From Candidatus Thalassarchaeaceae archaeon (GTDB lineage: Archaea; Thermoplasmatota; Poseidoniia; Poseidoniales; Thalassarchaeaceae), in NCBI GenBank assembly GCA_023700245.1, contig JAJPRE010000004.1, positions 24,068-88,067 of the forward strand: a stretch of DNA of 64,000 bases, given 5' to 3'. Each line of letters starts with the position of its first letter. Positions within the stretch are counted from its first letter, which is position 1. The notes beneath the pieces were generated by a model that was not told the DNA's origin, ran no database searches, and saw only the letters and a list, made by a program, of their open reading frames with translations. A program made the translations under genes and the position numbers. This document shows, piece by piece, positions 2,375 to 55,700 of this stretch.

Positions 2375-2755
2375 TTACTGTGACAAGGTCTCAAAGTGAC
2401 CTTTAATTTCATTAAATCTGTCTTGAGCATCTTTTTCCATGCTAATTACAGCTACTGCTGCAGTTTTGGTTCCATTACTCATTCCTGCTGCTTCAGCAAG
2501 GAATGTTTGATCGGCCACATATATGAATGGAATATCTTTTTCTTTACAAATCATTGGAATATGGGCTAATAATTCTCCTGGACTTACATTTTCCGCCATT
2601 ACTATCATTAGTGCAGTACCTCTCTCTGCAGCTTTGGTAACTTCATTTGCACCCTTCTTCAGTCTTCCACGTTCATTCTTCCCAACGGCCTTCACCATTT
2701 CATAGACTTGCTCTTGTACGTCTTGCGGGGTTTCAAAAGATATATGTACACTCAT
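2375..2755 (-). CDS. rpl7ae: 50S ribosomal protein L7Ae (K-turn binding)
   Basis: [15 protein letters not shown]...[24 protein letters not shown]. Confidence 0.97.
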
Positions 2756-2774
2756 TAGATAATCTCCTCATGTA
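2747..2774 (-). promoter_or_regulatory. Kink-turn overlapping the SD sequence and start codon of rpl7ae (probable autoregulatory element)
   Basis: Minus strand reads UACAU-GA-GGA-GAUUA-UCU-AAU-GA-GUGUA: tandem G.A/A.G pairs, a 3-nt bulge and a 5-bp NC stem. GAGGAG and the AUG (2755-2753) lie inside it. Confidence 0.65.
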
Positions 2775-2798
2775 GGTAAGTCGGCGCACGACTTGGCT

Positions 2799-2806
2799 GA
2801 TATAAA
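2799..2806 (-). promoter_or_regulatory. TATA box for rpl7ae-rps28e-rpl24e
   Basis: TTTATATC on the minus strand about 25-30 nt upstream of the K-turn-containing leader. Confidence 0.55.
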
Positions 2807-2817
2807 CGCAACGCATT

Positions 2818-2826
2818 AAAAAAAAA
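2818..2826 (-). terminator. Archaeal poly-U terminator after prs
   Basis: T9 on the minus strand, 13 nt downstream of the prs stop. Confidence 0.55.
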
Positions 2827-2838
2827 TCCAGATCTAAG

Positions 2839-3795
2839 TTATATTAATTTTTTAATGCCCCTAGACAATGCATTAGCAGATTCTACAACTGCCCTAGGAT
2901 TTGATAAAGAGTCGGTACTGTAAACGCCGTCTACATGATTAGCCATTTTTGTAATTGCACCACCAGTAAAAAGACCATGCGTACATGCTGCATGAACTTC
3001 TAATGCACCCTGTCTTCTTAGCGCATCGCTAGCTCTACAGATTGTTCCACCAGTACTAATCATATCGTCAACTATGGCTACAATTTTTCCTGAAACATCT
3101 AAATCTTTAGGTGTATGTTCTATAGTGTGAGCATCAATTCTAGTTTTTTCCAAATAAGAAAACTCACAACCTATTATTCTAGCGACTTCTGAGGCTCTCT
3201 TTATTGCACCTTTATCTGGGCTTAGGATAAAATCTGGCACCACATCTCTGCTTAGTTTATCAGCAATTTCTGGCATAGAACTAACAAATTCTATTGGAAA
3301 ATTCAATTTTTCAAGTACAGATTGCTCGTGCAGGTCTAATATCACCATTCCATCACAATAATTAGTCAATAACTTACCTATGACTTCTGCTGATATTACT
3401 TCTCCTTTTGAAAATCTTTTATCCTGCCTAGAATATCCATAGTATGGAATTGCTAGAATTATTCCAGGCCCAACATCCTCTAGATTTTGCGGTTCTTCAC
3501 CTTTTAAATTTACTAAATCTCCCTTTCTAACATCTTTAATTGAATTTAATAATAAAATAGTTTTTAATATCTCGGAGTCAGGAAATGTGTTGGAAACTAA
3601 TATGACTTTTTCAGATCTTACGGATTCTATTGCATCATTTGGCAATCTGACATAACCTTCTCCATCAGGAAATCTCCTATCTTCCATTATTACATGTTCC
3701 ATGTTCATTATGTCAGCCAATGAACTCGCAATTTTTTGACCATTAGCACCGCTAACTATTGGCATATTGTTCTGGTCGAACAGTTCACCCTTCAT
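2839..3795 (-). CDS. prs: Ribose-phosphate pyrophosphokinase
   Basis: RRFPDGEGYVR, IPYYGYSRQDKRF, SPDKGA and IVDDMISTGGT motifs. Confidence 0.96.
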   Translation of the reverse strand: MKGELFDQNNMPIVSGANGQKIASSLADIMNMEHVIMEDRRFPDGEGYVRLPNDAIESVRSEKVILVSNTFPDSEILKTILLLNSIKDVRKGDLVNLKGEEPQNLEDVGPGIILAIPYYGYSRQDKRFSKGEVISAEVIGKLLTNYCDGMVILDLHEQSVLEKLNFPIEFVSSMPEIADKLSRDVVPDFILSPDKGAIKRASEVARIIGCEFSYLEKTRIDAHTIEHTPKDLDVSGKIVAIVDDMISTGGTICRASDALRRQGALEVHAACTHGLFTGGAITKMANHVDGVYSTDSLSNPRAVVESANALSRGIKKLI

Positions 3796-40153: not shown

Positions 40154-42253
40154 ATGAAATATAAATCAAATCAGACATTTACTATTCTACTAATATTTAT
40201 GATGCTATTTGCTGGTTGTACTGGCAACGAAGATATGGCCGAACCAATGGAAGAAACTATTCTTGGATGCACGGACGTTTCTGCCACTAATTATGATTCA
40301 AATGCAATGACTGATGATGGTAGTTGTGAATTTAATGAAGATGATAATACTTCCACTGAATCCTTTTTAGAAATTCCTCACACGGATGGGTGTGATAATA
40401 CTAATCCTATACATTGCATGCTTCCGTTTCCTTCAGATGCTTTTTTGGTAGATGATGATTCTACTGCTACAGGTAAAAGAATGTCATACTCGCCTTCAAC
40501 AATACCTGGATCTGGAACTGTCGATGAAGTTTATGCTCCGATTCTCAATCAAATAGACGGAGCTAGCCCTAATACACAAATTATGACAGCATTCTATGTC
40601 GAGCCAGATGTCTCTGAGTTGGCAGGTCAATTTTCAATCGGCAAAAGTCTTGACCCAAATCATTCAACAATGATAATTAATCAAGAAACCGGATTTTTAG
40701 TTCCACATTGGGTCGAATTAGATCTTAGATCAGAATCAGACCAGCCAACTATACTTCATATTAGGACAATTGAAGCACTAGATCATAATACTGCTTATGT
40801 TGTATTGATGAATGGACTGGTAGATTCTAATAATGACAAAATAGTCGCTCCTGATGGATTTTCTGCCCTCAGAGATGGTGTCATAACTACATCTCCAGAT
40901 GTCGAAAATCGTAGACCTTATTTTGAAAATTTATTCGCATGGATAAGTGACAATACAAATCGCCCAATTTCAGAATTACAGACTGCATGGAGTTTTAATA
41001 CAGCTTCCACAGAATCTCTAATTGGGCCACTACTCTCTATGAGGGATGATGCATTAGATAGAATAGGGCCGGATGGATTAGGTTGTACAGTAGAATCTAA
41101 TACAGAGATAATGACCGAGGATGGCAACAGAAGTCACTGGTTAATTACAGGTACATACACCGCTCCACAGTATACAGAATCATTTTATCCTCCAACATTA
41201 TTACGTAGGACATCTGATACGGATAGGACTCCTGTTTTTGTTGAAAATAGGGAAATACCATTTTGGCTAGTAATTCCCGGAACTGCAACTGTCAAAGGGC
41301 CCGCTGACTTGACTATATGGGGGCACGGATTCCTTGGAAATGGTAATACATCAGGACTTAACAGTTGGGCTAATCAAAATAATGCTGCATTGCTTGGTAC
41401 TAGTTTTTATGGTTGGTCTGATGATGATTTTACTAGTATTGAATATGCAGTTTTGAATATGAATTATTTTCAACATCAAGCAGAAAGATTAGAACAAGCT
41501 ATGATAAATCAGGTTGTAATGATTAAATCATTTAAGGGTATTTGTGCGGAGTTGCCGGACCTTTATTTAAATGATACTAAATTAATTGATGTTACCAACC
41601 CTACTTATACAGGATATTCCAATGGCGCAATACGTGGACCCTCAATAGTCGGTTTATCTCCAGATTTAGATCGAGGAGTCCTATGGGCCGGCGGATCTTC
41701 CTTTACCCATATAATTGAGAGATGCACTCAATACGACAAATTTCATTTTATATTTTCAAGTGACTTTGGCTATTCAAATCAATTAGATAGAGCCGTTGCA
41801 ATATCTATTATGCAATCTTTCTGGGATCCTGTTGAAGCTGATACATTTTTGTATCTTAGAGAAGAAGGATATAAAGATAAAATACAACCTTATGAGTTAA
41901 TGACATTATTTTCAATTACAGATTTACAGATTTCTAATATTTCTTCTGCTAGGATGATGAGGACCGGGGGAATACCACTTCTAGACTCTTCTACAATCAC
42001 GCCTTATGGTTTTGAGGGTCCAAATATAGTATCCTCTGGATACAATGGTTCCGTCGGAGTTTTCTTTGATGGGGGATATGAACATGCTCCAGATGGCAAT
42101 ATCTATGGGCAAGAGCCGCATTCAGCACATAATGCAATCGGGGGACTTATTATTGCAAGAGCTATGGCTTTCACTTTCCTTAAAACAGGTGTAGTTCTTG
42201 ACACATGTGAAGGAGATTGCTCGTTTACAGATGAAGATGTAAATTGGAATTAA
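40154..42253 (+). CDS. Secreted lipoprotein with Ig-like N-terminus and alpha/beta-hydrolase domain
   Basis: FAGC lipobox; GCTD..A.NY...DDGSC motif; CMLPFPSD; GHGFLG; nucleophile elbow GYSNG. Confidence 0.75.
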   Translation: MKYKSNQTFTILLIFMMLFAGCTGNEDMAEPMEETILGCTDVSATNYDSNAMTDDGSCEFNEDDNTSTESFLEIPHTDGCDNTNPIHCMLPFPSDAFLVDDDSTATGKRMSYSPSTIPGSGTVDEVYAPILNQIDGASPNTQIMTAFYVEPDVSELAGQFSIGKSLDPNHSTMIINQETGFLVPHWVELDLRSESDQPTILHIRTIEALDHNTAYVVLMNGLVDSNNDKIVAPDGFSALRDGVITTSPDVENRRPYFENLFAWISDNTNRPISELQTAWSFNTASTESLIGPLLSMRDDALDRIGPDGLGCTVESNTEIMTEDGNRSHWLITGTYTAPQYTESFYPPTLLRRTSDTDRTPVFVENREIPFWLVIPGTATVKGPADLTIWGHGFLGNGNTSGLNSWANQNNAALLGTSFYGWSDDDFTSIEYAVLNMNYFQHQAERLEQAMINQVVMIKSFKGICAELPDLYLNDTKLIDVTNPTYTGYSNGAIRGPSIVGLSPDLDRGVLWAGGSSFTHIIERCTQYDKFHFIFSSDFGYSNQLDRAVAISIMQSFWDPVEADTFLYLREEGYKDKIQPYELMTLFSITDLQISNISSARMMRTGGIPLLDSSTITPYGFEGPNIVSSGYNGSVGVFFDGGYEHAPDGNIYGQEPHSAHNAIGGLIIARAMAFTFLKTGVVLDTCEGDCSFTDEDVNWN

Positions 42254-42266
42254 AAAAATATTATTT

Positions 42267-42467
42267 TTAATTCTCACTATCTCTTTTATCCTGTAAGAAA
42301 GAGACTAAAGCCTCAATACTTGGAAATTCAATTGTAACTACACTTATGTGTTTACAATCTTGACAAATAAATCTCTTTCCGGTTTCATAACCCATATATG
42401 GAGATATTCTTGGACTAAAACAATTAGAACAAACTTCAATTATCTTTACATTTTCATATTCTTCCAT
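42267..42467 (-). CDS. Small zinc-ribbon protein
   Basis: CSNC...CQDC pairs in 66 aa. Confidence 0.7.
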   Translation of the reverse strand: MEEYENVKIIEVCSNCFSPRISPYMGYETGKRFICQDCKHISVVTIEFPSIEALVSFLQDKRDSEN

Positions 42468-42568
42468 AGGTTAATGTAAAAGATGTACCTATTTAATAGA
42501 TTGTAATAATTATATAAATTCTATAAATCCGGAGGTAACTCTAAATGAGGGTCCTTTTATGATTAAGC

Positions 42569-45500
42569 ATGGAAGGGTATCCTAAAAAAACAGTTTTGAA
42601 TTCAGATTCTGATGCATCAATGTATGGATTTTATGCCTCTTTAGCAGCAGGAGGATTTCTGTTAGCATATGCAATTTATTATGTAACAATTGTAAATGTA
42701 ACAACAGATTATGCTTACTTGACACTAGGAATAAGTACTGCAATTATGGCGATAATGGCAATCATATTTCACGAATGGTCCCTTAAAAATAAAGGGCAAG
42801 AAAGAGATGAGAATGCGATTGAAGAATATATTGGAGGTACTGCAGTTTTAATGGGCGCGCTTTCAGCAATTTGGCTTTCACGTTTTATGGTTTATTATTT
42901 AGGAAAAGAAAATAGTTTGATAGAAATCCAAGAAGGCGTAATATGGATTCCAATTTGGCTTTCTTTACTTCAAACAATTTCGTTAATATTTGTCATGGAA
43001 ATTTCTACTAGGATGATCGAAAGGCATTCATTAGGCACATTACCAAGAACCATAGTTATCTTAGCACCCATTAGTTTAGCATTTAGTGCAATCTCAATTT
43101 GGTTAGATTATTCAAATGGGCATTTGGAAATTTTTCTCACTACTTCATTCCTGTTACTATTGAGTAGTTCAATTTTATATTCTCTTCGCTTAAATCGTTC
43201 TGCATTATATTTATTATCTTCAGGAATAAGTGTCGCACTTCCAATTTATCTTTCTCTTAATAATCCAGAACATGCTAGCCTTCTTGTCCCAATTGTGATA
43301 TTAATTGGAATTACGGCCACAGATAGAAGCCTGTCTAGAGATATGGTTGAAAGAGGCTCTGGAGTAGTTGTAGCTGCGATTTTATTTACTCAAATATTAG
43401 CTTCTACAGATAATACTCCTTATGTATTTGCTAATATTTTCGTAAGTTCAGATCCCTTTAATCTTGTTTTCTGGCTTTGGGCCGCGCTACTAATTGGATG
43501 GTTTGTTCCAACAGCAATGGTACGAACTCCTGCAATGCCAATAGCATTGGCCCTTTCATTAGCACTCCTGTCTGATCAAGCTGCAATAATTGGATGGTTA
43601 ATTGGAATATGTGCTTTCATATACTTAGAAACAAGGCCTCAGGCTAGAAGCTGGGTTGTCCGTTTTACTTACATTGCCATGCTCATATCTTGGTATATTT
43701 CAGGTACAATAGGCGCTGAACTAGATAGTACTTTGCTGTCATTCAATAATTTTTCATTAGATGCCGTAACATGCTCTTCACTAGTATTATTCCCCATATT
43801 GTTAATGATTGGTTTTTGGGGTGAAAAAAGAGGAACATTTGGCTTTTACGAGGGACCTAATCTCCTTTTATTATTAGCTTCATTAAATATATTACTAATG
43901 GGAGAAACAAACTTTATATATCCCGTATTAATAATATCAGCGTCCTTATTTCAAGCTTATAATTATACAATGAAAAAATTTGGCCAAGAGTTAGAAAAAG
44001 ATCTAGTATCAGCTCTTTTATTACCTATTATTTTTGTAATTTTATTTTATAATAATAATGAATCAAATTTAATTTTTTCATTAATATTGATATCAGCATC
44101 GTTGTTCCAATTTTATATCTTTTATGAAAATAATAATAGAATTGGTGGAGATAAAAGTATATTATCTATTTCTTTATTACTTCCAATTATTATTGTTGCC
44201 ATATTTGATAATAATAACTTTACAATTTTTGATATTAAACCCTTACCAATTGCTTCTGGTTTAGCCATTTTACTAATATCTCATATCAATAGAAAAGATG
44301 ATGAAAATCTAATACTAAAATCAGAATTTTTAATATCCTTTGTATTATTTACTATATTTTTCATTCAAAATTTTGATTCATGGTCTGATTCAGGATTAAT
44401 AGTTAATGCGACATTAATTTCTATGTCTTTACTTGTAACTTTACTACTATTGGAAGGAGGGGCAATTCGTAACTCCACTCCTATTGAAAGACTAATTGGC
44501 ATATGTTATCTTTTACCTATTGCAGGGGTTTCATCATTGATCTTAACTCAGGAAAGTGAAAGTATATATTCGCTTTTAATACATGATATTTTAATTCTTA
44601 TTCCTCCGCTAATTGTCAGCATTAGGCTGAAAGTTCTTACAGATTTATCCCGGGAAGCAAGGGATTATGGGGCCCTAACTCTCTTATTATTACTAATAAT
44701 TGGATTAACTGATATTTCGGGAGGACTATTGGCAATCCCAGTTTTCGGACTTACAGTACAACGGGCATCCAAACATGTTTCATCCCCAATACTCATTTCT
44801 CTACCAATATTTGCAATAGGTTATGCAACTTTATTTTCATTCGATGCTTCAGAAGATGCAATACTTTGGCCTTGGCTAGATAGTATTTCATATATTGGAG
44901 ATAAATCAGAATTATTAGGTTTTCAAACACCCCGTTGGTCCGCTTTGTTATTATCCACAATTCCTGCCATGGTGCTATATTATTTACCAGATGAAAAAAA
45001 GAGATTAGATGGATCTAGATATGGTCCAGAGCAGATGTTTGGGCCCTTTTTAGCAACTCTATTTACTATTTCTTTTTTATTGCCAGATGAGCGTCTTGCA
45101 CCAATTTTTATTGTTACTACTCTTACTTATGGTTCATGGAAGTATGGTATTTTGGGTTGGTTTTGGATAACCCCTATTGCTACCTTTTGGGCTTCATTAA
45201 ATTTAATTTCATTAATTGAAGAAAATGAAGGTATACTAAATACAAATATAGAATATGCTGCATTTTTTGGGGGTATTATTGGTTTATTACAATATTTACT
45301 AATACGTAATGATATTATTTATTCCAATGTCAAAAATCTTGAATTACTTGACTCTTCATATGATTACTTGGCCCTGAGTTCTAGACTGATGGCATATGCT
45401 TTATTCTTTATGGCAGGTGATATTTCCGATATTATACCATTTTTAACCAGTATTATGATAGGAATAGATACTTTACGTAACAGCGAACCTATACTATTCA

Positions 45501-46402
45501 ATATATCAATAGTTTTACAGTATTATACTCTATATTTATTCAATGACAACTATCAAACTAGTGCATTATGGCCTGTTTTAATTGGTATAATGATGTTATC
45601 TTTATCATGGCTTAAGTATAATCCATTTCCTGAAAAAACTAATCAAAACAGCATTGGAAGTATCAGTTATGATGCAGACTCAAATACCTATCAGAACTTG
45701 CCAAATATAGAATCTAACATAGACTTTGATTTTGAAAAGAACTTAGGATTGGTTGGGTCAATATTTGCCCTTATTTTTATGCTTCCATTTTCCTTATCGT
45801 TGGCTTTTGAAACTGCAAATCAATCGTTGTTTGGTTTAACATTGATTTCAATATCTGCACATCATATGATTTTAGGATTTCAACGTGATCAAGGTTGGAG
45901 GCGATTGTTTAGCCTTGTAGGATTGCCATTAGGACTAGTTTATACTGGTATAGTATTCGAAGGATTAATACTAGTTCTAATGTTATTTTTGGCGGCTTTA
46001 ACTCTTATTGGGCAGTCATTGCTTTATTCTTCAAAAGGAGGTTTAGAGATAGGAAGTACTCTAGAAGGCTCGGAATCAATAGTCTCAAAAATTGGCCTCC
46101 CTGATCCTAATATGTTTGAATCTGAATTAAAACAAAATAATGAAGAATCACCTGAGCCTAACAACAATCAGAATAATGAAGGCATTAAAAATCAATTAGG
46201 AAAAGAAATAGATAATATTTCTAAGTCATTATTTACTTCGGATATTCTTGATTTTAAGATAAAATTAGATGAGACATTAGTTTCCAAAACTCAAATTAAT
46301 ATAAATATGGCATATGAATCTCACGATGCTTCAGTATGGCTACCAATTTTAGTAATTAACTCAGAAGGAACATTATTATTGGAATGGGAAAAAAGAATAT
46401 AA
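42569..46402 (+). CDS. Very large polytopic membrane protein of unknown function
   Basis: 1277-aa ORF composed almost entirely of hydrophobic helices, with an acidic C-terminal tail. Confidence 0.8.
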   Translation: MEGYPKKTVLNSDSDASMYGFYASLAAGGFLLAYAIYYVTIVNVTTDYAYLTLGISTAIMAIMAIIFHEWSLKNKGQERDENAIEEYIGGTAVLMGALSAIWLSRFMVYYLGKENSLIEIQEGVIWIPIWLSLLQTISLIFVMEISTRMIERHSLGTLPRTIVILAPISLAFSAISIWLDYSNGHLEIFLTTSFLLLLSSSILYSLRLNRSALYLLSSGISVALPIYLSLNNPEHASLLVPIVILIGITATDRSLSRDMVERGSGVVVAAILFTQILASTDNTPYVFANIFVSSDPFNLVFWLWAALLIGWFVPTAMVRTPAMPIALALSLALLSDQAAIIGWLIGICAFIYLETRPQARSWVVRFTYIAMLISWYISGTIGAELDSTLLSFNNFSLDAVTCSSLVLFPILLMIGFWGEKRGTFGFYEGPNLLLLLASLNILLMGETNFIYPVLIISASLFQAYNYTMKKFGQELEKDLVSALLLPIIFVILFYNNNESNLIFSLILISASLFQFYIFYENNNRIGGDKSILSISLLLPIIIVAIFDNNNFTIFDIKPLPIASGLAILLISHINRKDDENLILKSEFLISFVLFTIFFIQNFDSWSDSGLIVNATLISMSLLVTLLLLEGGAIRNSTPIERLIGICYLLPIAGVSSLILTQESESIYSLLIHDILILIPPLIVSIRLKVLTDLSREARDYGALTLLLLLIIGLTDISGGLLAIPVFGLTVQRASKHVSSPILISLPIFAIGYATLFSFDASEDAILWPWLDSISYIGDKSELLGFQTPRWSALLLSTIPAMVLYYLPDEKKRLDGSRYGPEQMFGPFLATLFTISFLLPDERLAPIFIVTTLTYGSWKYGILGWFWITPIATFWASLNLISLIEENEGILNTNIEYAAFFGGIIGLLQYLLIRNDIIYSNVKNLELLDSSYDYLALSSRLMAYALFFMAGDISDIIPFLTSIMIGIDTLRNSEPILFNISIVLQYYTLYLFNDNYQTSALWPVLIGIMMLSLSWLKYNPFPEKTNQNSIGSISYDADSNTYQNLPNIESNIDFDFEKNLGLVGSIFALIFMLPFSLSLAFETANQSLFGLTLISISAHHMILGFQRDQGWRRLFSLVGLPLGLVYTGIVFEGLILVLMLFLAALTLIGQSLLYSSKGGLEIGSTLEGSESIVSKIGLPDPNMFESELKQNNEESPEPNNNQNNEGIKNQLGKEIDNISKSLFTSDILDFKIKLDETLVSKTQININMAYESHDASVWLPILVINSEGTLLLEWEKRI

Positions 46403-46445: not shown

Positions 46446-48389
46446 ATGCGAAAGTATGAGATGCTAGTTTTATTACCGAAGGACATGACAACAACATGGG
46501 TAGTAGATTCAAATGCTTTTATTCATCTTGGATCATTGTCTCCTATGGGATTAATTGAGTCTTTAGAAAATGCGTTGAAAGATAATGGAATCAAATTACA
46601 TGTAACATCTGGAGTACATGATGAAGTTAGAAATGTCCGATTCCAAAAATGGGATGGTAGGCCAAATTTACTTTCAACAATTAGTCATTTACTTACTACT
46701 GTAACTATCGGCGAAGGAGAAATAAGGGCGATAGCCCAAAAGATCGGTGAAAAAGCTGCTCCACAAGATGTAGACTTATCGCTAATGGTTCTTGCAGCAA
46801 GATATGAGTTAGAAGGGCGCAAAGTAGTATTAGTTACTGATGATTTTAAGATGACTACTACCAAAGTAAAAGCTGGTTTCGGATTTGAAACATGCCCTCC
46901 GTCAACATTTATCAATAGGCTTTCAGAATCTGCTTCAAATAAACATACTACGACATTACGAACTTTATCTAGGCATATTAGAGCGGCAGAGATGAGATAT
47001 GCAATTAGCAGAAATGCTGAATATGATATACAAGCAAAATTAACTTGGCTTGTTGATAGTCTTCTAACTAGCAGACCTCAAACCAAAGTACAAGAAAACT
47101 CAACAATTTCAGACGAAGACTCTATGGTACTTACACTAATGTCCCATATGAGGGGCGAAAAAATAAAGAAAAGCCGTTTTAAAAAACTTGGAAGACTTCC
47201 TGAAATTTGTAAATCTGTCTCTCAAATAGATTCCCAACTTGCGACGTTATTAGATGAAAAGGATATGTCTGATATTTCTATTATTTATGAGCAATTTTTA
47301 GAAATTCTTAGAATAACTTTGGAAAATACGGGAGTAGGACTTTCACCGCTTGAAGACTCTATTTCAGTAATAGCCCATCGTGCAATGGCAGGTCCAATTA
47401 GTCGTTTGGAAACAGTTTTAGGATTAATGGCTAATCTAATAGGTAGAGATCAAATTGCACGCTTGCACTTTACAAGGGCATTACATCAAGCCAGCCTAAG
47501 TAATGATAATTCTGCAGAAATTAGAACCTTACACCATTTAGGATTATTGGCATTAGCAGAAGGAAATTTCCAAAGATCAGCTGAACTTTTTGAAGCTGCA
47601 GATTTACAAGCCCAAGTTAAGGATGCACCAAGATTGAGGCACGTCATTGCAGCAGGTCTTTCAAGACATTTATCTGGAGATGACACTAATGCTAAATCTC
47701 TAATTCAGAGTGCTAATGACATAATAGAAAGTAATGAAAATTTAGCTATAGAGCCATTATTAATCTTGGGTCGATCATTAATGGGAATAGATAGGCCATG
47801 GTTGGCAATGGAAATTTTTGATGAAGCATTAGAATGTGCTATCGAAGCAGAATTGCCAAACGAAATCTCTCGTATACAGGGATTACTTTTACTCGTAAGT
47901 ACTGCTGCAGCAGGACAAGATAATGAAGAAAATATTGCTATCAGGGGCCTTTTAGATCGACTCAATACTACTGATGTCAAAACAGATAAGGAAGTTAATG
48001 AAGTCATCTCAACAGTGGAAAAAATATCACAAGAACATCTTAAGCCACTTGAGGATACATGGAAAGAGTGGCGACCTGCATCAGATTTATTCGCAAACGA
48101 AAGGAAATTAGATGTCCTAAGGTCGATATCTGATTCTGAAGGTCAAACACTTGTCATAGTTCACCATAATATCTTAGGGGGTCTTGGCCTTTGGATGCCA
48201 GCAAATACTCCTGAATTTGCACCAAATCAGCATATCGTAATATCGGGAACTAGAATAAAAGTTGCCGATGCAACTGCGGAATTGGCAGATAAGCATAATA
48301 TTAGAGGTGTTATTGCCATTGAAGATCCTGATGAATTAGATATTTCAGTAGATATTGTTGAAGCAATTATTGAAGAAGAGAATAATTGA
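46446..48389 (+). CDS. PIN-domain nuclease fused to TPR-like helices and a C-terminal beta domain
   Basis: VVDSNAF, VHDEV, QDVDLSL and VTDDF (PIN acidic tetrad); helical repeats A..HF.RAL, A.ELFEAA and A.EIFDEAL. Confidence 0.7.
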   Translation: MRKYEMLVLLPKDMTTTWVVDSNAFIHLGSLSPMGLIESLENALKDNGIKLHVTSGVHDEVRNVRFQKWDGRPNLLSTISHLLTTVTIGEGEIRAIAQKIGEKAAPQDVDLSLMVLAARYELEGRKVVLVTDDFKMTTTKVKAGFGFETCPPSTFINRLSESASNKHTTTLRTLSRHIRAAEMRYAISRNAEYDIQAKLTWLVDSLLTSRPQTKVQENSTISDEDSMVLTLMSHMRGEKIKKSRFKKLGRLPEICKSVSQIDSQLATLLDEKDMSDISIIYEQFLEILRITLENTGVGLSPLEDSISVIAHRAMAGPISRLETVLGLMANLIGRDQIARLHFTRALHQASLSNDNSAEIRTLHHLGLLALAEGNFQRSAELFEAADLQAQVKDAPRLRHVIAAGLSRHLSGDDTNAKSLIQSANDIIESNENLAIEPLLILGRSLMGIDRPWLAMEIFDEALECAIEAELPNEISRIQGLLLLVSTAAAGQDNEENIAIRGLLDRLNTTDVKTDKEVNEVISTVEKISQEHLKPLEDTWKEWRPASDLFANERKLDVLRSISDSEGQTLVIVHHNILGGLGLWMPANTPEFAPNQHIVISGTRIKVADATAELADKHNIRGVIAIEDPDELDISVDIVEAIIEEENN

Positions 48390-50022: not shown

Positions 50023-50241
50023 ATGAAGATAGCGCGGCATACACTTGAGGCAGAAAACTTATCAGATCTTTTTGTACTGATTGATGCAGTTGTAAATAAG
50101 ACCAAATTAGAATTCCCCAAACTCCAAGTCATATTTGATGATCATATAACTAGTGTTTACAAGGGCTTTAATCCTAAATATACTCATGATGAGGGATGGA
50201 TTACTTCTATTATTCTAACTCAAATAACAGAATCTAGATGA
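50023..50241 (+). CDS. Hypothetical protein
   Basis: 72-aa ORF co-directional with and tightly spaced to its neighbours. Confidence 0.5.
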   Translation: MKIARHTLEAENLSDLFVLIDAVVNKTKLEFPKLQVIFDDHITSVYKGFNPKYTHDEGWITSIILTQITESR

Positions 50242-50250
50242 TGATTAAAT

Positions 50251-50661
50251 ATGTTTTTATTAGAAAAATCTATTCTTTCTCCTAAAGATTACATGTCCCT
50301 AAGGGCCTCAGCAGGCATGGCTAAAAGATCACTGAAAGGTGCGCAAAAAGGCCTAGGTAATGAAATCTATTCAGTAGTAATTAAGATTAAAAAAACCAAT
50401 GAAATAATTGGCATGGGAAGAATTATTGGAGATGAAGGTACTGTTTTCCAAATATGTGATATGGCTGTAAAAAGTGAATGGCAGAACAAAGGTGCTGGTA
50501 CAATGATTATGGACGATATGATGAAGTACATTGAAGAAAATGCTGAAGAAAATGCTTATATTAATCTATTAGCAGACGTCAATGGATTTTATGAAAAGTG
50601 GGGATTTGAGTTAACTGCTCCAAATTCAGTTGGTATGTTTTATAAAAAAACAAATGATTGA
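50251..50661 (+). CDS. GNAT-family N-acetyltransferase
   Basis: IIGMGRIIGD...DMAVKSEWQNKGAG and GFYEKWGF. Confidence 0.92.
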   Translation: MFLLEKSILSPKDYMSLRASAGMAKRSLKGAQKGLGNEIYSVVIKIKKTNEIIGMGRIIGDEGTVFQICDMAVKSEWQNKGAGTMIMDDMMKYIEENAEENAYINLLADVNGFYEKWGFELTAPNSVGMFYKKTND

Positions 50662-51246: not shown

Positions 51247-53001
51247 ATGACTTTAGCACCAATTGATTATGATTACGGGATAGATGCAAACTATTTTTTT
51301 GCTACGACGATAACTTGCGATAATGAAGAAGCACGTAAAATGTATGTCCGTGCTTTTGGACACATGTTGAATTATAATCACGAAGAAGCAATTGCATGCT
51401 TTTCAGAATGTGCAGAGTTAGATCCTAATTGCGCTATGGCATGGTGGGGAATTGCATATTGTGTCTCTTCAAATTATAACTGGGCTCCCGGCCTTGGTTC
51501 CGGCCACGATTCTATCCAAAAAGCAATTACTCTCAAAGATGGATGCTCAGAACTAGAAAAAGACCTCATTGATGCACTAGCAGAGCGTCATTCTGCAGAA
51601 GCACGTGACGCAGCAGATCCGGCCGTCCTTAATATGGGAAATAGCCCCGAATTAAATGTTGCATTTGCCCATGCTATGGCACCTCTTTACGTGAAATATA
51701 GCGGAAACTTGGATGTTACTGCAATTTATGTAGAAGCACTCATGAATCTAAAAGCATGGCAATTATGGGATAAGAATACAACAACTGGAGAAATTACTCC
51801 TGCAGATGATAATACTCTACTTTTGGTTAAAATTCTAGAAGATGCTTTTGAAGGTAGTGAAGAAGCAAAGAGCCATGTAGCACTTTGTCATTTGTATTGT
51901 CACGCTTTGGAACTTTCACCATTCCCAGAGAGGGCCTTACCTCAGGCTGATGTACTTCGTACTCTAATGCCAGGATTAGGTCATTTAGTTCACATGCCAT
52001 CACATATCGATGCGTGGGTAGGGCAGTGGAAAGAAGCTATGGATTGCAATATTGCAGCTGTGGATGCAGATGATCGTTATGTTGAAATTACTGGTAATGA
52101 GTCTCAATTTTATAAATTTTACAGAATGCACAATCATCATTTCGTGGTCTGGTGTGCTATGTTCGAAGGACAATACGAAACTGCACTAAAGTATGCACGT
52201 AAAGCGGTCAGCACTCTTCCAGCAGGAGATGCTGAATCTGGTGTACAATTCATGTTAGCAGGAATAATCCCAATGGGGGCAATTTTCCTTGAATCATATG
52301 TTACAATGCCTTGGCATGTTATGATTAGATTCGGTAAGTGGGATGAAATTCTAAATGAACCACTTCATACAGATGTAGCTGTTTTCCCTGCTGCAATTGC
52401 AACACAACATTATGCTAGAGGAGTTGCTTATGCTTCAAAGGGCATGGTGCCAGAAGCAGAAGCAGAACAGGTTTTATTCAAAGAAGCAATAAAAAATCCT
52501 GCTCTTGCAGGACGAGTACTTCACAACAATTTGATGTATCAAGATCCAAGTGATGGACCTTGTATTCTTTTGGTAAATGATGCTATACTTGACGGTGAAA
52601 TAGAATACCGCAGACAATTCCTAGCAAAGGAAAACGGAAATTCTTCTGACTTCACTGTAGCATTTGATCATCTACGCCGTGGAGTAGATCTTTCACTTAA
52701 TCTTGCATATAACGAACCTTGGGGGCAAATGCAACCAGTACGTCATATTCTCGGTGCACTTCTTCACGAACAAGGAGAAATCGAAGAGGCGGAAGCAGTT
52801 TACCGTGCTGACATCGAACTATGGAAGGACAATATGTGGGGATTACTAGGCCTCAAACTTTGTCTAGAAGATCGTGGCGATGCACCTGAAGAACTCGCTG
52901 AAGTGACTGCTTTGTTCAATGAACGCAGTTCCCGTGCTGATATTAAACCCGCAAAAACTTGCTTCTGTGCTCAAGATAGCATAGATGAAAGTTGCTGCTA
53001 A
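51247..53001 (+). CDS. Tetratricopeptide-repeat protein
   Basis: YNHEEAIACF...ELDPNCAMAWWGIAY, HLYCHALE, HMPSHI and YNEPW...P.RH.LGA motifs; ends CFC...CC. Confidence 0.85.
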   Translation: MTLAPIDYDYGIDANYFFATTITCDNEEARKMYVRAFGHMLNYNHEEAIACFSECAELDPNCAMAWWGIAYCVSSNYNWAPGLGSGHDSIQKAITLKDGCSELEKDLIDALAERHSAEARDAADPAVLNMGNSPELNVAFAHAMAPLYVKYSGNLDVTAIYVEALMNLKAWQLWDKNTTTGEITPADDNTLLLVKILEDAFEGSEEAKSHVALCHLYCHALELSPFPERALPQADVLRTLMPGLGHLVHMPSHIDAWVGQWKEAMDCNIAAVDADDRYVEITGNESQFYKFYRMHNHHFVVWCAMFEGQYETALKYARKAVSTLPAGDAESGVQFMLAGIIPMGAIFLESYVTMPWHVMIRFGKWDEILNEPLHTDVAVFPAAIATQHYARGVAYASKGMVPEAEAEQVLFKEAIKNPALAGRVLHNNLMYQDPSDGPCILLVNDAILDGEIEYRRQFLAKENGNSSDFTVAFDHLRRGVDLSLNLAYNEPWGQMQPVRHILGALLHEQGEIEEAEAVYRADIELWKDNMWGLLGLKLCLEDRGDAPEELAEVTALFNERSSRADIKPAKTCFCAQDSIDESCC

Positions 53002-53027
53002 TAGTGTAGTTTGAATATTTAGTCGAC

Positions 53028-53192: not shown

Positions 53193-53549
53193 TTATTCAC
53201 TACCAACGAGTTTGTAATCATCAGAAAGTGGAGTTGCACCAGTTTCCATAGAGATGATTTTACCATCTTTGAATCGAATGAAAGACATTACTGCTTCAGA
53301 AGTAGATCCATTTGCAAAATGCACTACGGAGTGAGCCATTCCAACCTCGTCATTTTCGAACAGAACTCTATTGTTTTCAGAGCGAACAGAATCATTACCA
53401 GCAAATCCAATCATATCGGATTTACTCATTGTTGCCCCGCCTATATGCGGATTAAAAACAAATTCATCATGAATTACTTCATCAAGTGCTTCTAAATTTC
53501 CATTTTCCCAGGCTTCATTGTATTCTGCTATGATAGACATACTGCTCAC
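53193..53549 (-). CDS. NTF2/SnoaL-like protein
   Basis: YNEAWENGNLEALDEVIHDEFVF...RVLFENDEV...RFKDGKII. Confidence 0.8.
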   Translation of the reverse strand: MSSMSIIAEYNEAWENGNLEALDEVIHDEFVFNPHIGGATMSKSDMIGFAGNDSVRSENNRVLFENDEVGMAHSVVHFANGSTSEAVMSFIRFKDGKIISMETGATPLSDDYKLVGSE

Positions 53550-53689
53550 TCTCTATCGACGTTTAAAAATATCATGGTTGCAACTTCTAATACACTTCAC
53601 TCAATATATTGCCAATACTCATCAAGAATGGAACTAATACTAGATTCAGAAAAAATAAATAAATGATATGACTATAGGATTTGATATAT

Positions 53690-53704
53690 GTGTAAACTCT
53701 ACCC
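53690..53704. promoter_or_regulatory. GTGT-N7-ACCC motif upstream of the wHTH gene
   Basis: GTGTAAACTCTACCC, 50 nt before the ATG at 53754. Confidence 0.4.
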
Positions 53705-53753
53705 TCTAAAATAGAATTGTTTTTGTACTAATCATCATCCTTGTTAGATTATT

Positions 53754-54104
53754 ATGAAGAAGCAACGAGACTTTCCAATTACTCTTTATAGGATTCTATT
53801 GTATTTATCTAGGATGCGGACAAATTCTGCAACTGCAAAACAATTAGTAAGGATTGAAAGAGCAACTGGAATAGATAGAAAAGAATTAAGAAATTTGTTA
53901 ATTAAGTTAGAAAAAATGGAATTAATAGATAAATTTGATTCTGGTAACATTGGTCGTGGAGGGCATGCAATAGTTCACTGGGAAGTTACTGAGAATGGAC
54001 GAATGTGGCGATCAGATATTGGAAGATTCATTCAATTAGGCCAAAGAATGGAGATATATCCTAGTGAATTCTTCTACCTTCCCTCGGATGATATGAAAAT
54101 ATAA
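53754..54104 (+). CDS. Winged-helix (PadR/MarR/HxlR superfamily-like) DNA-binding protein
   Basis: IERATGIDRKELRNLLIKLEKMELID...WEVTENG (HTH plus wing). Confidence 0.75.
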   Translation: MKKQRDFPITLYRILLYLSRMRTNSATAKQLVRIERATGIDRKELRNLLIKLEKMELIDKFDSGNIGRGGHAIVHWEVTENGRMWRSDIGRFIQLGQRMEIYPSEFFYLPSDDMKI

Positions 54105-54117
54105 ATAATTAACATAG

Positions 54118-54132
54118 GTGTATATTTAACCC
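54118..54132. promoter_or_regulatory. GTGT-N7-ACCC motif overlapping the TATA-like box of the small-gene operon
   Basis: GTGTATATTTAACCC, 26 nt before the ATG at 54158. Confidence 0.45.
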
Positions 54133-54157
54133 CCTATAATGTATCTCCGAATATTAT

Positions 54158-54460
54158 ATGCAAACCCACTGTGCGGTAACTATGTCTGGACCGAAACCTG
54201 TAGATAAAGTCACAAAAGGACTTAATGCATTAGTTGATGAATTTTCTTCAGCAGTAAAAGAATTAGTCAACGCAGGGGAAGAAACAGTAGTCCATCTGGC
54301 TGTTGGCGGTGGACGGGCAATAAGTGCGATAATAGATGCTACAGGCGAAGTTACCAAAGTAACTGTAGAAACCGCTAGTAATGTTGTGGGAACAATAGGC
54401 GATAGCGCATCTCGTATTGTAAAAGGAAGTAAGAAAGACAAGCAAGAAGAGGAGAATTAG
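54158..54460 (+). CDS. 11-mer-repeat amphipathic helical protein (start could be 54182)
   Basis: Seven contiguous 11-residue units from residue 15 to 91, mostly hydrophobic at positions 1, 4, 7/8 and 11. Confidence 0.75.
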   Translation: MQTHCAVTMSGPKPVDKVTKGLNALVDEFSSAVKELVNAGEETVVHLAVGGGRAISAIIDATGEVTKVTVETASNVVGTIGDSASRIVKGSKKDKQEEEN

Positions 54461-54462
54461 GT

Positions 54463-54642
54463 ATGATATGGAAAATATATGGATTAGTAATGACCTGCGT
54501 TTTAATTGGAGGAACTACGGCAATAGTAGGAGCATCAGTAAGTAGCTTTAGGCACTATGCAGGATGGAAAGAGAATCTAAATGAGGATTTAACAGAAATA
54601 AAAGAAATTAATAAATCAAAAGTAAAAGGAGGAAAAAAATAA
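54463..54642 (+). CDS. 59-aa membrane peptide (below the ORF-track cut-off)
   Basis: MIWKIYGLVMTCVLIGGTTAIVGASVSSFRHYAGWKENLNEDLTEIKEINKSKVKGGKK; upstream GGAGG SD-like; stop overlaps the next ATG (TAATG). Confidence 0.7.
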   Translation: MIWKIYGLVMTCVLIGGTTAIVGASVSSFRHYAGWKENLNEDLTEIKEINKSKVKGGKK

Positions 54643-54827
54643 TGATTAGAGAATTAACAATTATTGGAGCTATTGGTCTTGCAGTAACGGCATCAAATTA
54701 TATGGCATATGCAGGTTCTGCAGGAGCAGGATATAAATTTGGAAGAGAATGGGGAACTAAAATATGTAATTTTAATGATGGCTTTTTAGATACTGTTTAT
54801 ACAAAATTAAAACAAACAGAAAATTAA
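54642..54827 (+). CDS. 61-aa Gly/Ala-rich membrane peptide
   Basis: GGAGG SD; hydrophobic GAIGLAVTAS...AYAGSAGAG followed by an amphipathic tail. Confidence 0.7.
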   Translation: MIRELTIIGAIGLAVTASNYMAYAGSAGAGYKFGREWGTKICNFNDGFLDTVYTKLKQTEN

Positions 54828-54875
54828 AACTTATTATCCCTATTACTACCAGCACAGTTTAATCTTTAATTTGAT

Positions 54876-55700
54876 GTGGTTGCTATGATAATTGATTTAT
54901 TACCATCTTTTCCCCCACAAACTCTGAAAGATTGGACATTTATTGTATTATTCGTGTCTCTCTTATTAAGAATTATATTGGTATTAAGGCCAATTAAAGA
55001 AATTTCAAATTTTTTCGATGGAAAGCCAACTGTTGGATTAAAATTAATTCGGGAATTAGAAATTAAGGGACTAAATCAATTTGTAATTACTGAAATTGCA
55101 TTAGCTATATTTCCAGCATTACTAGGTGTTCCAATAATGTATTATTTTCGTGTTGATGAAGTTCTAATTGTGGAAATGAATGCAGTATTACTTGGTATTT
55201 TTATTATCGGAATGATATCATGGTTATATTTTGATTTCAAAAACTCAAGTGCTACAAATAAAAAATTATTATTTGCAATAAATGAATTAAATTCCATAGC
55301 AGATTCACTAGATACCTTGAAGAGAATGTCAGGATTAGATAAATTGAACATTCTGGTACAGGCAAGAAAGGGACTTATAAAATTGAAAAATATGACTACT
55401 TCCAAATTACCTGACAAAATTCAAGAAGCAGGTGCTACTTCTTCTAGCTACATATCTTCATTTTTTTCCCCAGCTACTTCCTTATTAAGCAATCTTGGGA
55501 ATGCAATCATTGATACAATGAGTGAAAAAATTACCGAAGTTGCAACCTTTGGATTATCCGAACTTGATGAATTGTTGGAAGATCAATTTAAAAATTATAC
55601 CAAGCGAACCCATATTCAAATATTTACTACCCTGATTCGTACTATTGCACCATCAGTTTTCGTTACAATGATAGCAATTTCCTATCTTAATTACTACTGA
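54876..55700 (+). CDS. Membrane protein with three N-terminal TMs, a long helical soluble region and a C-terminal TM
   Basis: Hydrophobic-segment pattern; no recognised family. Confidence 0.7.
   Translation: MVAMIIDLLPSFPPQTLKDWTFIVLFVSLLLRIILVLRPIKEISNFFDGKPTVGLKLIRELEIKGLNQFVITEIALAIFPALLGVPIMYYFRVDEVLIVEMNAVLLGIFIIGMISWLYFDFKNSSATNKKLLFAINELNSIADSLDTLKRMSGLDKLNILVQARKGLIKLKNMTTSKLPDKIQEAGATSSSYISSFFSPATSLLSNLGNAIIDTMSEKITEVATFGLSELDELLEDQFKNYTKRTHIQIFTTLIRTIAPSVFVTMIAISYLNYY

Follow-up and report, generated by a model that had tools for sequence, protein, structure and literature searches.

The question raised by the locus described here is what a compact cassette (about 2 kb) of five co-directional genes, all encoding proteins without known relatives, could do in a marine archaeon. 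The cassette lies in the window that we analyzed, a 64,000-nucleotide (nt) stretch of contig JAJPRE010000004.1 (positions 24,068 to 88,067, forward strand; GenBank assembly GCA_023700245.1) belonging to the 1.47-Mb, 82%-complete genome of a Candidatus Thalassarchaeaceae archaeon. According to the open reading frame (ORF) list and the sequence, it consists of genes for a winged helix-turn-helix (wHTH) protein, an amphipathic repeat protein, two small membrane peptides (PepA and PepB) and a four-pass membrane protein. An initial annotation, made from the sequence alone, had taken these genes for an undescribed membrane-associated module headed by the wHTH gene, and this view is supported by conserved gene order and by the selection acting on the genes. 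As to function, we tentatively propose, by analogy and with a probability of roughly 0.4, that the cassette is a regulated membrane-surface module specific to the order Poseidoniales, with a logic like that of the Psp system or of phasins.

The relatives of the five genes were collected by running phmmer and jackhmmer on the ORFs of loci from related genomes, and a wider scan of GTDB r232, with one genome for each species, yielded 71 loci. Every locus bearing the repeat protein had the same arrangement, in which wHTH, repeat protein, pepA and pepB are followed by the membrane-protein gene in one or two copies; this was first seen in about 27 loci from 12 genera and both Poseidoniales families. 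A scorable repeat-protein gene was present in 67 of the 71 scanned loci, and all five genes lay on the available stretch in 53. Of the 44 loci whose sequence continues for 1.4 kb or more after pepB, 42 had an intact membrane gene, the remaining two copies being degraded or frameshifted. The synteny for which the initial annotation had proposed a search in relatives is thus kept across two families and 67 loci. Its assignment of the DNA to Marine Group II (MGII) was also correct, as the names on the relatives (Candidatus Thalassarchaeaceae, with MGIIb-N1 for a congener, Thalassarchaeum, Poseidoniaceae and Poseidonia) show, and the module is present in Thalassarchaeaceae (MGIIb). Pairwise ratios of non-synonymous to synonymous substitution rates (dN/dS) were 0.01-0.05 for the repeat protein, 0.02-0.09 for the wHTH protein, 0.03-0.12 for the membrane protein, 0.04-0.33 for PepA and 0.04-0.34 for PepB. 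These low values (0.01-0.34) indicate that all five are protein-coding genes under purifying selection.

The five ORFs and their couplings were borne out by the ORF list and the sequence. The repeat gene and pepA are separated by a 2-nt gap, pepA and pepB share a TAATG overlap, and Shine-Dalgarno-like sequences precede both peptide genes (GAGGAG at 54449-54454 before pepA and AGGAGG at 54627-54632 before pepB). The overlap between pepA and pepB amounts to 4 nt in 55 of 60 loci and to 1 nt in four, including the window. A spacer of 48 nt, without an inserted gene in the window, follows pepB up to GTG 54876, and the membrane-protein gene converges on a gene for an MFS transporter.

The start sites of two genes were revised by comparison (Table 1). 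Nearly all relatives of the repeat protein begin with M-x-G-[PK]-K, which corresponds to ATG 54182 in the window; the spacer between the wHTH stop codon and the repeat-gene ATG is mostly 64-78 nt long, with an A/T box about 27 nt before the ATG where this was measurable, and the X27 RNA contig starts exactly at 54182. Because the relatives' start, the TATA-like box and the end of the RNA contig agree, the repeat protein most likely starts at this ATG and has 92 amino acids (aa), and its mRNA is probably leaderless, the contig end being weak evidence for a transcription start. ATG 54158, by contrast, would fall inside the TATA-like box. Likewise, since the membrane protein has its closest database homologues among proteins of 268-271 aa, its start is probably ATG 54885. 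The initial annotation had given 100 and 274 aa for these two proteins, and its lengths are therefore not retained, whereas the 11-residue repeats of the one and the arrangement of three plus one transmembrane (TM) helices of the other are upheld by the analyses below.

Table 1 Positions of the cassette genes, the putative control elements and the HNH genes of the variable slot; positions refer to the window unless a locus of a relative (L number) is named
Feature	Position	Strand	Description
wHTH regulator gene	53754-54104	+	116 aa
Repeat-protein gene	ORF opens at 54158, probable start ATG 54182, ends at 54460	+	92 aa; seven 11-residue amphipathic repeats, acidic tail
pepA	54463-54642	+	59 aa; N-terminal TM helix, then juxtamembrane motif
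pepB	54642-54827	+	61 aa; Gly/Ala-rich helix, then G.GRK.GR..C..D
Four-pass membrane-protein gene, 'mem1' paralogue type	54876-55700 (274-aa ORF), probable start ATG 54885	+	271 aa
Putative operator O1	53686-53714	+	over the wHTH promoter; overlaps TATA-like TGATATATG (53682-53690), contains ACCCTCTA half-site
Putative operator O2	54115-54136	+	TAGGTGT-N7-ACCCCCTA, copy TAGGTGTATATTTAACCCCCTA; upstream of the repeat-gene TATA box
TATA-like box ATATTATAT	54151-54159	+	about 27 nt upstream of ATG 54182
Slot HNH gene, L036	4193-4672	-	
Slot HNH gene, L037	1446-1862	-	
Slot HNH gene, L038	1870-2310	-	
Slot HNH gene, L039	2341-2715	+	
Slot HNH gene, L139	1369-1779		
Slot HNH gene, L141	5001-5402		

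Metatranscriptome assemblies contained contigs 95-97% identical to the locus. One RNA contig of 715 nt (54307-55000) runs from the last part of the repeat gene across both peptide genes and the spacer to the beginning of the membrane-protein gene, and another of depth 68 spans 54259-54749. The segment comprising the repeat gene, pepA and pepB had the top contig depth over 20 kb in three of four metatranscriptomes and stood behind a TPR gene in the fourth, with the proviso that contig depth reflects expression poorly and that carry-over of DNA is possible. No RNA contig covered the wHTH gene. This uneven coverage fits a well-transcribed polycistronic RNA together with a weakly expressed regulator. 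Both small ORFs, one of which is missed by the ORF track according to the initial annotation, can be regarded as real genes, being covered by RNA contigs and under purifying selection. In the Red Sea, very highly expressed 'intrinsically disordered proteins' have been reported in MG-II (Hou et al. 2016; PMC5069720), and a link between these and the repeat protein could not be established.

None of the five proteins or their homologues from the other family gave anything above thresholds in Pfam, NCBIfam, PHROGs or PADLOC, and none had a significant sequence match in the PDB, where the best natural match of the membrane family was ZorA (E=0.46). PepA and PepB matched no Pfam or NCBIfam family at E<=1 except for one meaningless 14-residue stretch, and no paper describing the module was found in the literature. 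By the sequence comparisons made here, the module belongs to no described system and comprises five protein families without known relatives, one of them near-core. The same searches bear on an origin from a virus or plasmid, of which the cassette could be a remnant or a domesticated piece, as the initial annotation had suggested for a viral membrane module. The wHTH protein has weak, sub-threshold matches to plasmid ORF80-type and Replic_Relax models, the repeat protein has weak matches to tape-measure proteins and is labelled 'phage-related protein' in some JGI records, and the cassette is patchily distributed. However, the repeat and wHTH proteins had no relative in IMG/VR (2.9 million contigs, searched with single sequences and profiles) or, by tblastn, in 50,697 GenBank phage records, and the viral folds of BFVD held no match for the membrane protein; plasmid collections lay outside these searches. 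The cassette is not accompanied by integrase, replication or structural genes, its chromosomal position is fixed, and the resemblance to tape-measure proteins probably reflects a shared repeat-rich composition. Such an origin is thus disfavoured and appears extremely unlikely.

The wHTH protein has two invariant elements, the wing GRGGH and, at its C-terminal end, the motif YPxxFFYLPSD (mean column identity of 70% in alignment A3). Its Pfam matches are sub-threshold (MarR_2 at E=4e-4 and 20.8 bits against a cut-off of 27 bits; also HTH_5, TrmB and PadR-like models), as are its best PDB profile matches, none of which is significant: an Lrs14-like protein (E=0.13), Sso10a-2 and the PadR-like TA0346. 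A fold of the wHTH class is therefore likely, with the family match to MarR, PadR or Lrs14 below threshold. With the Lrs14-like, Sso10a and PadR/MarR-like regulators it shares a size of about 115 aa, a helix-turn-helix followed by a basic Gly-rich wing, and a palindromic putative operator at its own promoter; its C-terminal YPxxFFYLPSD lay outside all of these matches.

Further comparison of the loci revealed an inverted repeat of the type TAG(G/C)GGGT-N4-6-ACCCCCTA, with the variant TATACCGGTATA, at two fixed positions in relatives. By a strict test, 32 of 59 loci have it centred 56 nt before the repeat-gene ATG, just before the TATA box; in 17 of the 59 it is centred 12-20 nt before the wHTH ATG. 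At these two promoter positions it is about 23-fold enriched compared with the rest of the loci. The occurrence of the repeat at two fixed promoter positions lends independent support to a DNA-binding role of the wHTH protein. The window holds one candidate at each place, O1 and O2, which match at about 16 of 23 positions in a hand alignment; O1 may well be an operator, with a match that is weaker in the window's genus than in other genera. Over the full 1.47-Mb genome, only three copies of the strict pattern were counted, as many as expected by chance, and a wider regulon is therefore not indicated. We infer that the wHTH protein represses its own gene and controls the operon locally through the inverted repeat. 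A scan of the locus for bacterial promoters and terminators was uninformative, the host being an archaeon.

The repeat protein showed a BLOSUM self-similarity with z=4.5 at an offset of 11 residues and z=2.8 at offsets of 22 and 33, which confirms the 11-residue repeat, and its hydrophobic power peaks at 3.6-3.67 residues (residues 6-84). The register is regular over 28 homologues, with hydrophobic residues at positions 1, 2, 5, 8 and 9, an acidic one at position 3 and frequent basic ones at positions 7 and 10. As a helix, the protein would have a hydrophobic arc of about 130 degrees and a polar face with an acidic centre and basic flanks, similar to class A helices. It also contains an invariant motif, NAGEET.VH.AVG..R, and each of its repeats has invariant residues of its own, which argues for specific protein contacts and not for lipid binding only. 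AlphaFold2 returned a helix, three strands and a helix (pLDDT 66, pTM 0.41; other models 50-56), and this alpha/beta model was not adopted because of its low confidence and because the modelled strands have helical hydrophobic periodicity. The model had no Foldseek match in the PDB at E<=0.001. Profile matches in the PDB to designed armadillo repeats and to one phage tape-measure protein were judged compositional.

An uninterrupted 11-residue periodicity (3.67 residues per turn), a hydrophobic face made up largely of small residues and an acidic centre flanked by basic residues are also found in perilipins, alpha-synuclein, apolipoprotein A-I and group 3 LEA proteins. In contrast to generic 11-mer lipid binders, however, the repeat protein has its own invariant residues in each repeat and a far stronger conservation, and its likeness to the eukaryotic 11-mer proteins is at most convergence. 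This likeness raises the possibility, already put forward in the initial annotation, that the module serves to coat or to form lipid bodies or vesicles, with the 11-mer protein covering a monolayer or curved bilayer and the peptides and membrane protein acting as biogenesis factors, a special case of a role at the membrane surface. The 11/3 register with small hydrophobic residues, the class A-like charges and the high transcript depth agree with this possibility, as does a dedicated regulator like those of PhaR/PhaP and MLDSR/MLDS. Nevertheless, we consider it quite unlikely: no genes for storage-lipid or polyhydroxyalkanoate synthesis turned up linked to the cassette, although no search aimed at them was made, the cassette is optional within a genus, and the invariant residues of each repeat suggest a specific protein-protein structure.

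Hydropathy analysis bore out one clear TM helix in PepA, whereas the Gly/Ala-rich N-terminal helix of PepB is weakly hydrophobic in the window genome, so that the long hydrophobic helix ascribed to both peptides by the initial annotation holds fully for the first and less well for the second. Directly after its TM helix PepA has the motif G...S.F(R/K)HY, in which G, S and H are invariant in 55 unique sequences. In PepB, likewise compared over 55 unique sequences, the residues G, G and C of the motif G.GRK.GR..C..D are invariant and R, K, R and D are conserved above 90%; a polar residue in the middle of its helix is Asn in the window and Glu in most relatives (E or N in 82%). Because basic residues follow both helices, the positive-inside rule suggests that the tails of PepA and PepB face the cytoplasm.

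The four-pass protein was modelled by AlphaFold2 as all-helical (pLDDT 80, pTM 0.68), with helices at about residues 17-46, 66-90 and 103-144, a helical domain of about 120 aa that probably faces the cytoplasm, and a last TM helix at 246-271, and this model and hydropathy agree with the layout of three plus one TM helices. In the family alignment A2, R32 (TM1), E73 (TM2), W116 (TM3) and P259 (TM4) are invariant or nearly so, R32 and E73 being near-invariant charges inside TM helices, and most of the rows shown have an Asp at about residue 120, after W116. The model had no match at E<=0.001 in Foldseek searches against the PDB or BFVD.

Two small, hydrophobic, Gly-rich and cationic peptides beside a polytopic membrane protein could also be read as a two-peptide membrane toxin (an archaeocin or addiction module) with the 270-aa protein as its immunity factor, which was another suggestion of the initial annotation. 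Unlike class IIb two-peptide bacteriocins and archaeocins, however, both peptides lack a leader and begin with the hydrophobic helix itself, and neither the cassette nor its conserved flanks encode a transporter or peptidase, a processing protease and an exporter also being absent from the neighbourhood. Moreover, the peptide motifs probably lie on the cytoplasmic side and are invariant over two families, the peptides are invariably linked to a soluble protein of extreme conservation, and the supposed immunity protein is near-core, occurring without the peptides in most genomes. A toxin is accordingly disfavoured as very unlikely.

The distribution of the cassette differs from that of its membrane protein. 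The repeat protein was found in 46 of 301 sampled Poseidoniales genomes and 12 of 26 genera, varied in presence within the window's own genus, formed 286 database clusters, and was absent from the other orders of the class in a profile search; the wHTH profile gave only weak generic wHTH matches elsewhere in the phylum, its family being restricted to the order. In a contig scan, the cassette occurred only in Poseidoniales records, save for two contigs labelled as bacterial (L112, Opitutia bacterium, and L127, Deltaproteobacteria bacterium SAG), which most likely are mis-binned or contaminating Poseidoniales contigs carrying the archaeal cassette. The membrane-protein family, by contrast, was present in 226 of the 301 genomes, 25 of the 26 genera and 51 of 66 high-quality genomes (profile A2), and it formed 215 clusters among 1.84 billion representative proteins, all 250-340 aa long or fragments and without domain fusions.

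The four upstream genes are therefore best described as an accessory cassette that is always directly in front of a gene of the membrane family. Genomes without the cassette have a paralogue, mem2, alone at the same chromosomal place, where it is oriented away from a ChrR-type cupin gene in Poseidoniaceae and lies between the GNAT gene and downstream genes in the window's genus; in some genera, both membrane paralogues follow the cassette in tandem. Since the cassette is always attached to a near-core family, it seems to depend functionally on the membrane protein and not vice versa, and since most genomes carry the membrane protein without the cassette, this protein would have a basal function of its own. 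The position of the cassette is fixed in both families, between housekeeping genes and outside defence islands.

Several observations were made at individual loci. Between the same GNAT and 849-aa genes of the window's genus, locus L019 (genome G009) has wHTH, repeat protein, pepA, pepB and mem1, whereas L028 (G011) has only mem2, a paralogue of about 20% identity. The two arrangements thus replace each other at this locus in the manner of alleles. A 120-aa ChrR-type cupin (Pfam Cupin_7, E=3.7e-12; L022, 6795-7157, minus strand) is encoded divergently from the cassette or the lone membrane gene in 38 of the 71 loci. In L117 (5112-6844), the repeat protein, pepA and pepB are present, wHTH was not detected and the membrane gene is in five fragments, so the cassette may be decaying there. 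Two Poseidonia loci (L125, 3403-3567; L121, 238-402) contain a 54-codon fragment of a second, divergent membrane gene that ends 20 nt before the wHTH ATG, and in L125 genes for a serine recombinase and restriction-modification-like proteins lie just upstream of it. These fragments may have been left by a recombination or insertion event at the membrane gene. In a FastTree phylogeny of the wHTH and repeat proteins, which is based on about 200 residues and is suggestive only, the grouping departs from taxonomy, with genus g17 of family f3 falling together with family f1 and g16 being split up.

In some cassettes, pepB and the membrane gene are separated by an additional gene. One type encodes a third single-pass peptide with an acidic ..D..FIDD.. 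tail. Another, found in 5 of the 71 loci, in both Thalassarchaeaceae and Poseidoniaceae, and absent from the window, encodes a 124-159-aa protein with an N-terminal TM helix and a Cys4 HNH domain (motif CRICG..GYTEWHHIIS...NPGN.VELCK.CH; scores of 23.2 and 24.7 bits on Pfam HNH, whose cut-off is 21.4). The statement that no product is enzymatic thus remains valid for the window and fails for the family. Two more metagenome homologues of the HNH protein occupy the same slot, one of them sharing the MFS and oligoribonuclease flank of the window, and a more distant relative stands in an unrelated context. Matches to PADLOC were weak and none was significant (E>=0.018), and those to phages were weak and restricted to generic phage HNH proteins. 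In L039, the HNH gene is followed by a 143-aa ORF (2720-3151, plus strand) with an R-x4-H (RNKVAH) HEPN-like motif that matches HEPN_RiboL-PSP at E=8.5e-4, below the cut-off.

The tethered nuclease and the patchy distribution favour defence over a role at the membrane surface. The cassette would then be a membrane-anchored system against viruses or other mobile genetic elements, whose membrane proteins sense or block virus entry and whose effectors act at the inner face, either through the tethered HNH protein or through permeabilization by the peptides. Its logic would resemble that of Zorya type II (ZorAB and the HNH protein ZorE), Kiwa and membrane-bound injection nucleases. In agreement with this, the cassette varies within a genus, contigs often break at the locus, the slot holds the TM-anchored HNH protein in the five loci and two metagenome homologues and a HEPN-like ORF in one locus, the tree does not cleanly follow taxonomy, and in one lineage a serine recombinase gene and restriction-modification-like genes stand right beside the cassette. 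The membrane protein and PepB also have conserved charges inside their TM helices, and the faint ZorA match, though not significant, is in line with it. With Zorya type II (ZorA-ZorB-ZorE) the module shares a polytopic protein whose long helical domain is probably cytoplasmic, small single-pass partners, an HNH protein in some of its variants and a patchy occurrence. Unlike Zorya, however, the module has no PADLOC match for any component or for mem2 homologues, no significant PDB or Foldseek match, a 3+1 TM topology, partners with probably cytoplasmic tails, no peptidoglycan-binding domain, mostly no nuclease and a fixed locus. Defence is further opposed by the chromosomal position among housekeeping genes in both families, by the ultra-conservation of the repeat and wHTH proteins (dN/dS 0.01-0.09), which gives no sign of an arms race, and by the lack of a recognisable effector in most cassettes, whose partner membrane protein is near-core. 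We therefore regard an antiviral function as possible but on the whole unlikely.

A related and doubtful idea is that of a membrane-surveillance immune module of MGII, in which the abundant 11-mer protein, held at the inner face of the membrane by two or three tiny anchors and the four-pass protein, would report or seal a perturbation of the bilayer at virus entry. Just as doubtful is its extension, by which the tethered HNH protein of the nuclease variants would cut incoming DNA at the membrane and the module would be a non-homologous counterpart of Zorya or Psp logic with a convergent perilipin- or synuclein-like helix.

We thus return to the proposal of a regulated module at the membrane surface. 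Here, the wHTH protein would repress itself and control the operon through the inverted repeat. PepA, PepB and the four-pass protein would form a platform, with the basic and aromatic tails and the helical domain facing the cytoplasm. The abundant 92-aa repeat protein would fold as a long 11/3 amphipathic helix and dock on this platform and on the bilayer. Its role would be to stabilize, shape or monitor the cytoplasmic membrane, following the logic of PspF/PspA/PspB/PspC or of PhaR and phasin. Indeed, the Psp system (pspF/pspABC) and Bacillus LiaIH likewise place a regulator beside an operon for a peripheral helical membrane protein and two small single-pass proteins, and PhaR/phasin and MLDSR/MLDS likewise combine a small dedicated repressor and nearby operators with a highly expressed small amphipathic helical protein. 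The parallels are incomplete. The regulator of Psp is an AAA+ enhancer-binding protein, whereas that of the module is a small wHTH protein, and PspA is a 220-aa ESCRT-III-like coiled coil, whereas the repeat protein consists of 92 aa of 11-mers. Unlike Psp and Lia, the module has an extra four-pass protein and a patchy distribution, and unlike PhaR/phasin and MLDSR/MLDS, it has obligatory integral membrane partners.

Several observations weigh against the proposed membrane-surface role. The repeat proteins of two families, PepA and PepB have no match to the Pfam families PspA_IM30, PspB or PspC at E<=1, the repeat protein has none to the perilipin, synuclein, apolipoprotein or LEA families at E<=1, and there is no homology to PhaR/phasin or MLDSR/MLDS. 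AlphaFold2 places strands at residues 35-64 of the repeat protein, at low confidence. Expression looks constitutive and not stress-induced, as judged by contig depth, which is a poor measure. The cassette is present in only about 15% of genomes and variable inside a genus, an accessory or defence-like pattern rather than that of envelope housekeeping, and the TM-anchored HNH protein inside some cassettes is left unexplained.

The neighbours of the cassette in the window encode MFS transporter, oligoribonuclease, TspO, peptidase S15, nitrilase, GNAT, TPR and SnoaL proteins and large orphans. A defence-island context was considered and rejected on account of these neighbours. The SnoaL-like gene (53193-53549, minus strand) sits at the slot where other loci have the divergent cupin gene, and three large ORFs further upstream (699, 1277 and 647 aa; 46446-48389 and 40154-46402) had no Pfam match at E<=0.001. 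The gene for the 584-aa TPR protein (51247-53001) was as strongly covered in RNA contigs as the repeat operon. An X27 contig joins the end of the TPR gene directly to the start of the GNAT gene (50232-50388 / 52879-53002), which indicates that a close relative has another gene order at this place.

Poseidoniales are among the most abundant archaea of the surface ocean, and to our knowledge they have no cultured representative. Because the lineage is abundant yet uncultured, conserved and well-transcribed orphan modules such as this one are rare handles on its cell biology. The cassette is useful in this respect, being compact, with a self-contained putative regulator-operator pair and a 92-aa protein short enough to be synthesized, and its natural variants, in which the HNH nuclease, the third peptide or the second membrane paralogue is present or absent, are built-in genetic controls. 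Under either a membrane-related or an antiviral function, the locus adds five new families of proteins, including one that is near-core in the order, an interest tempered by the function being assigned by analogy. A role in membrane maintenance, if true, would bear on the unusual membrane biology proposed for the lineage, and an antiviral role, if true, would represent an MGII-specific defence mechanism without homologue among known systems.

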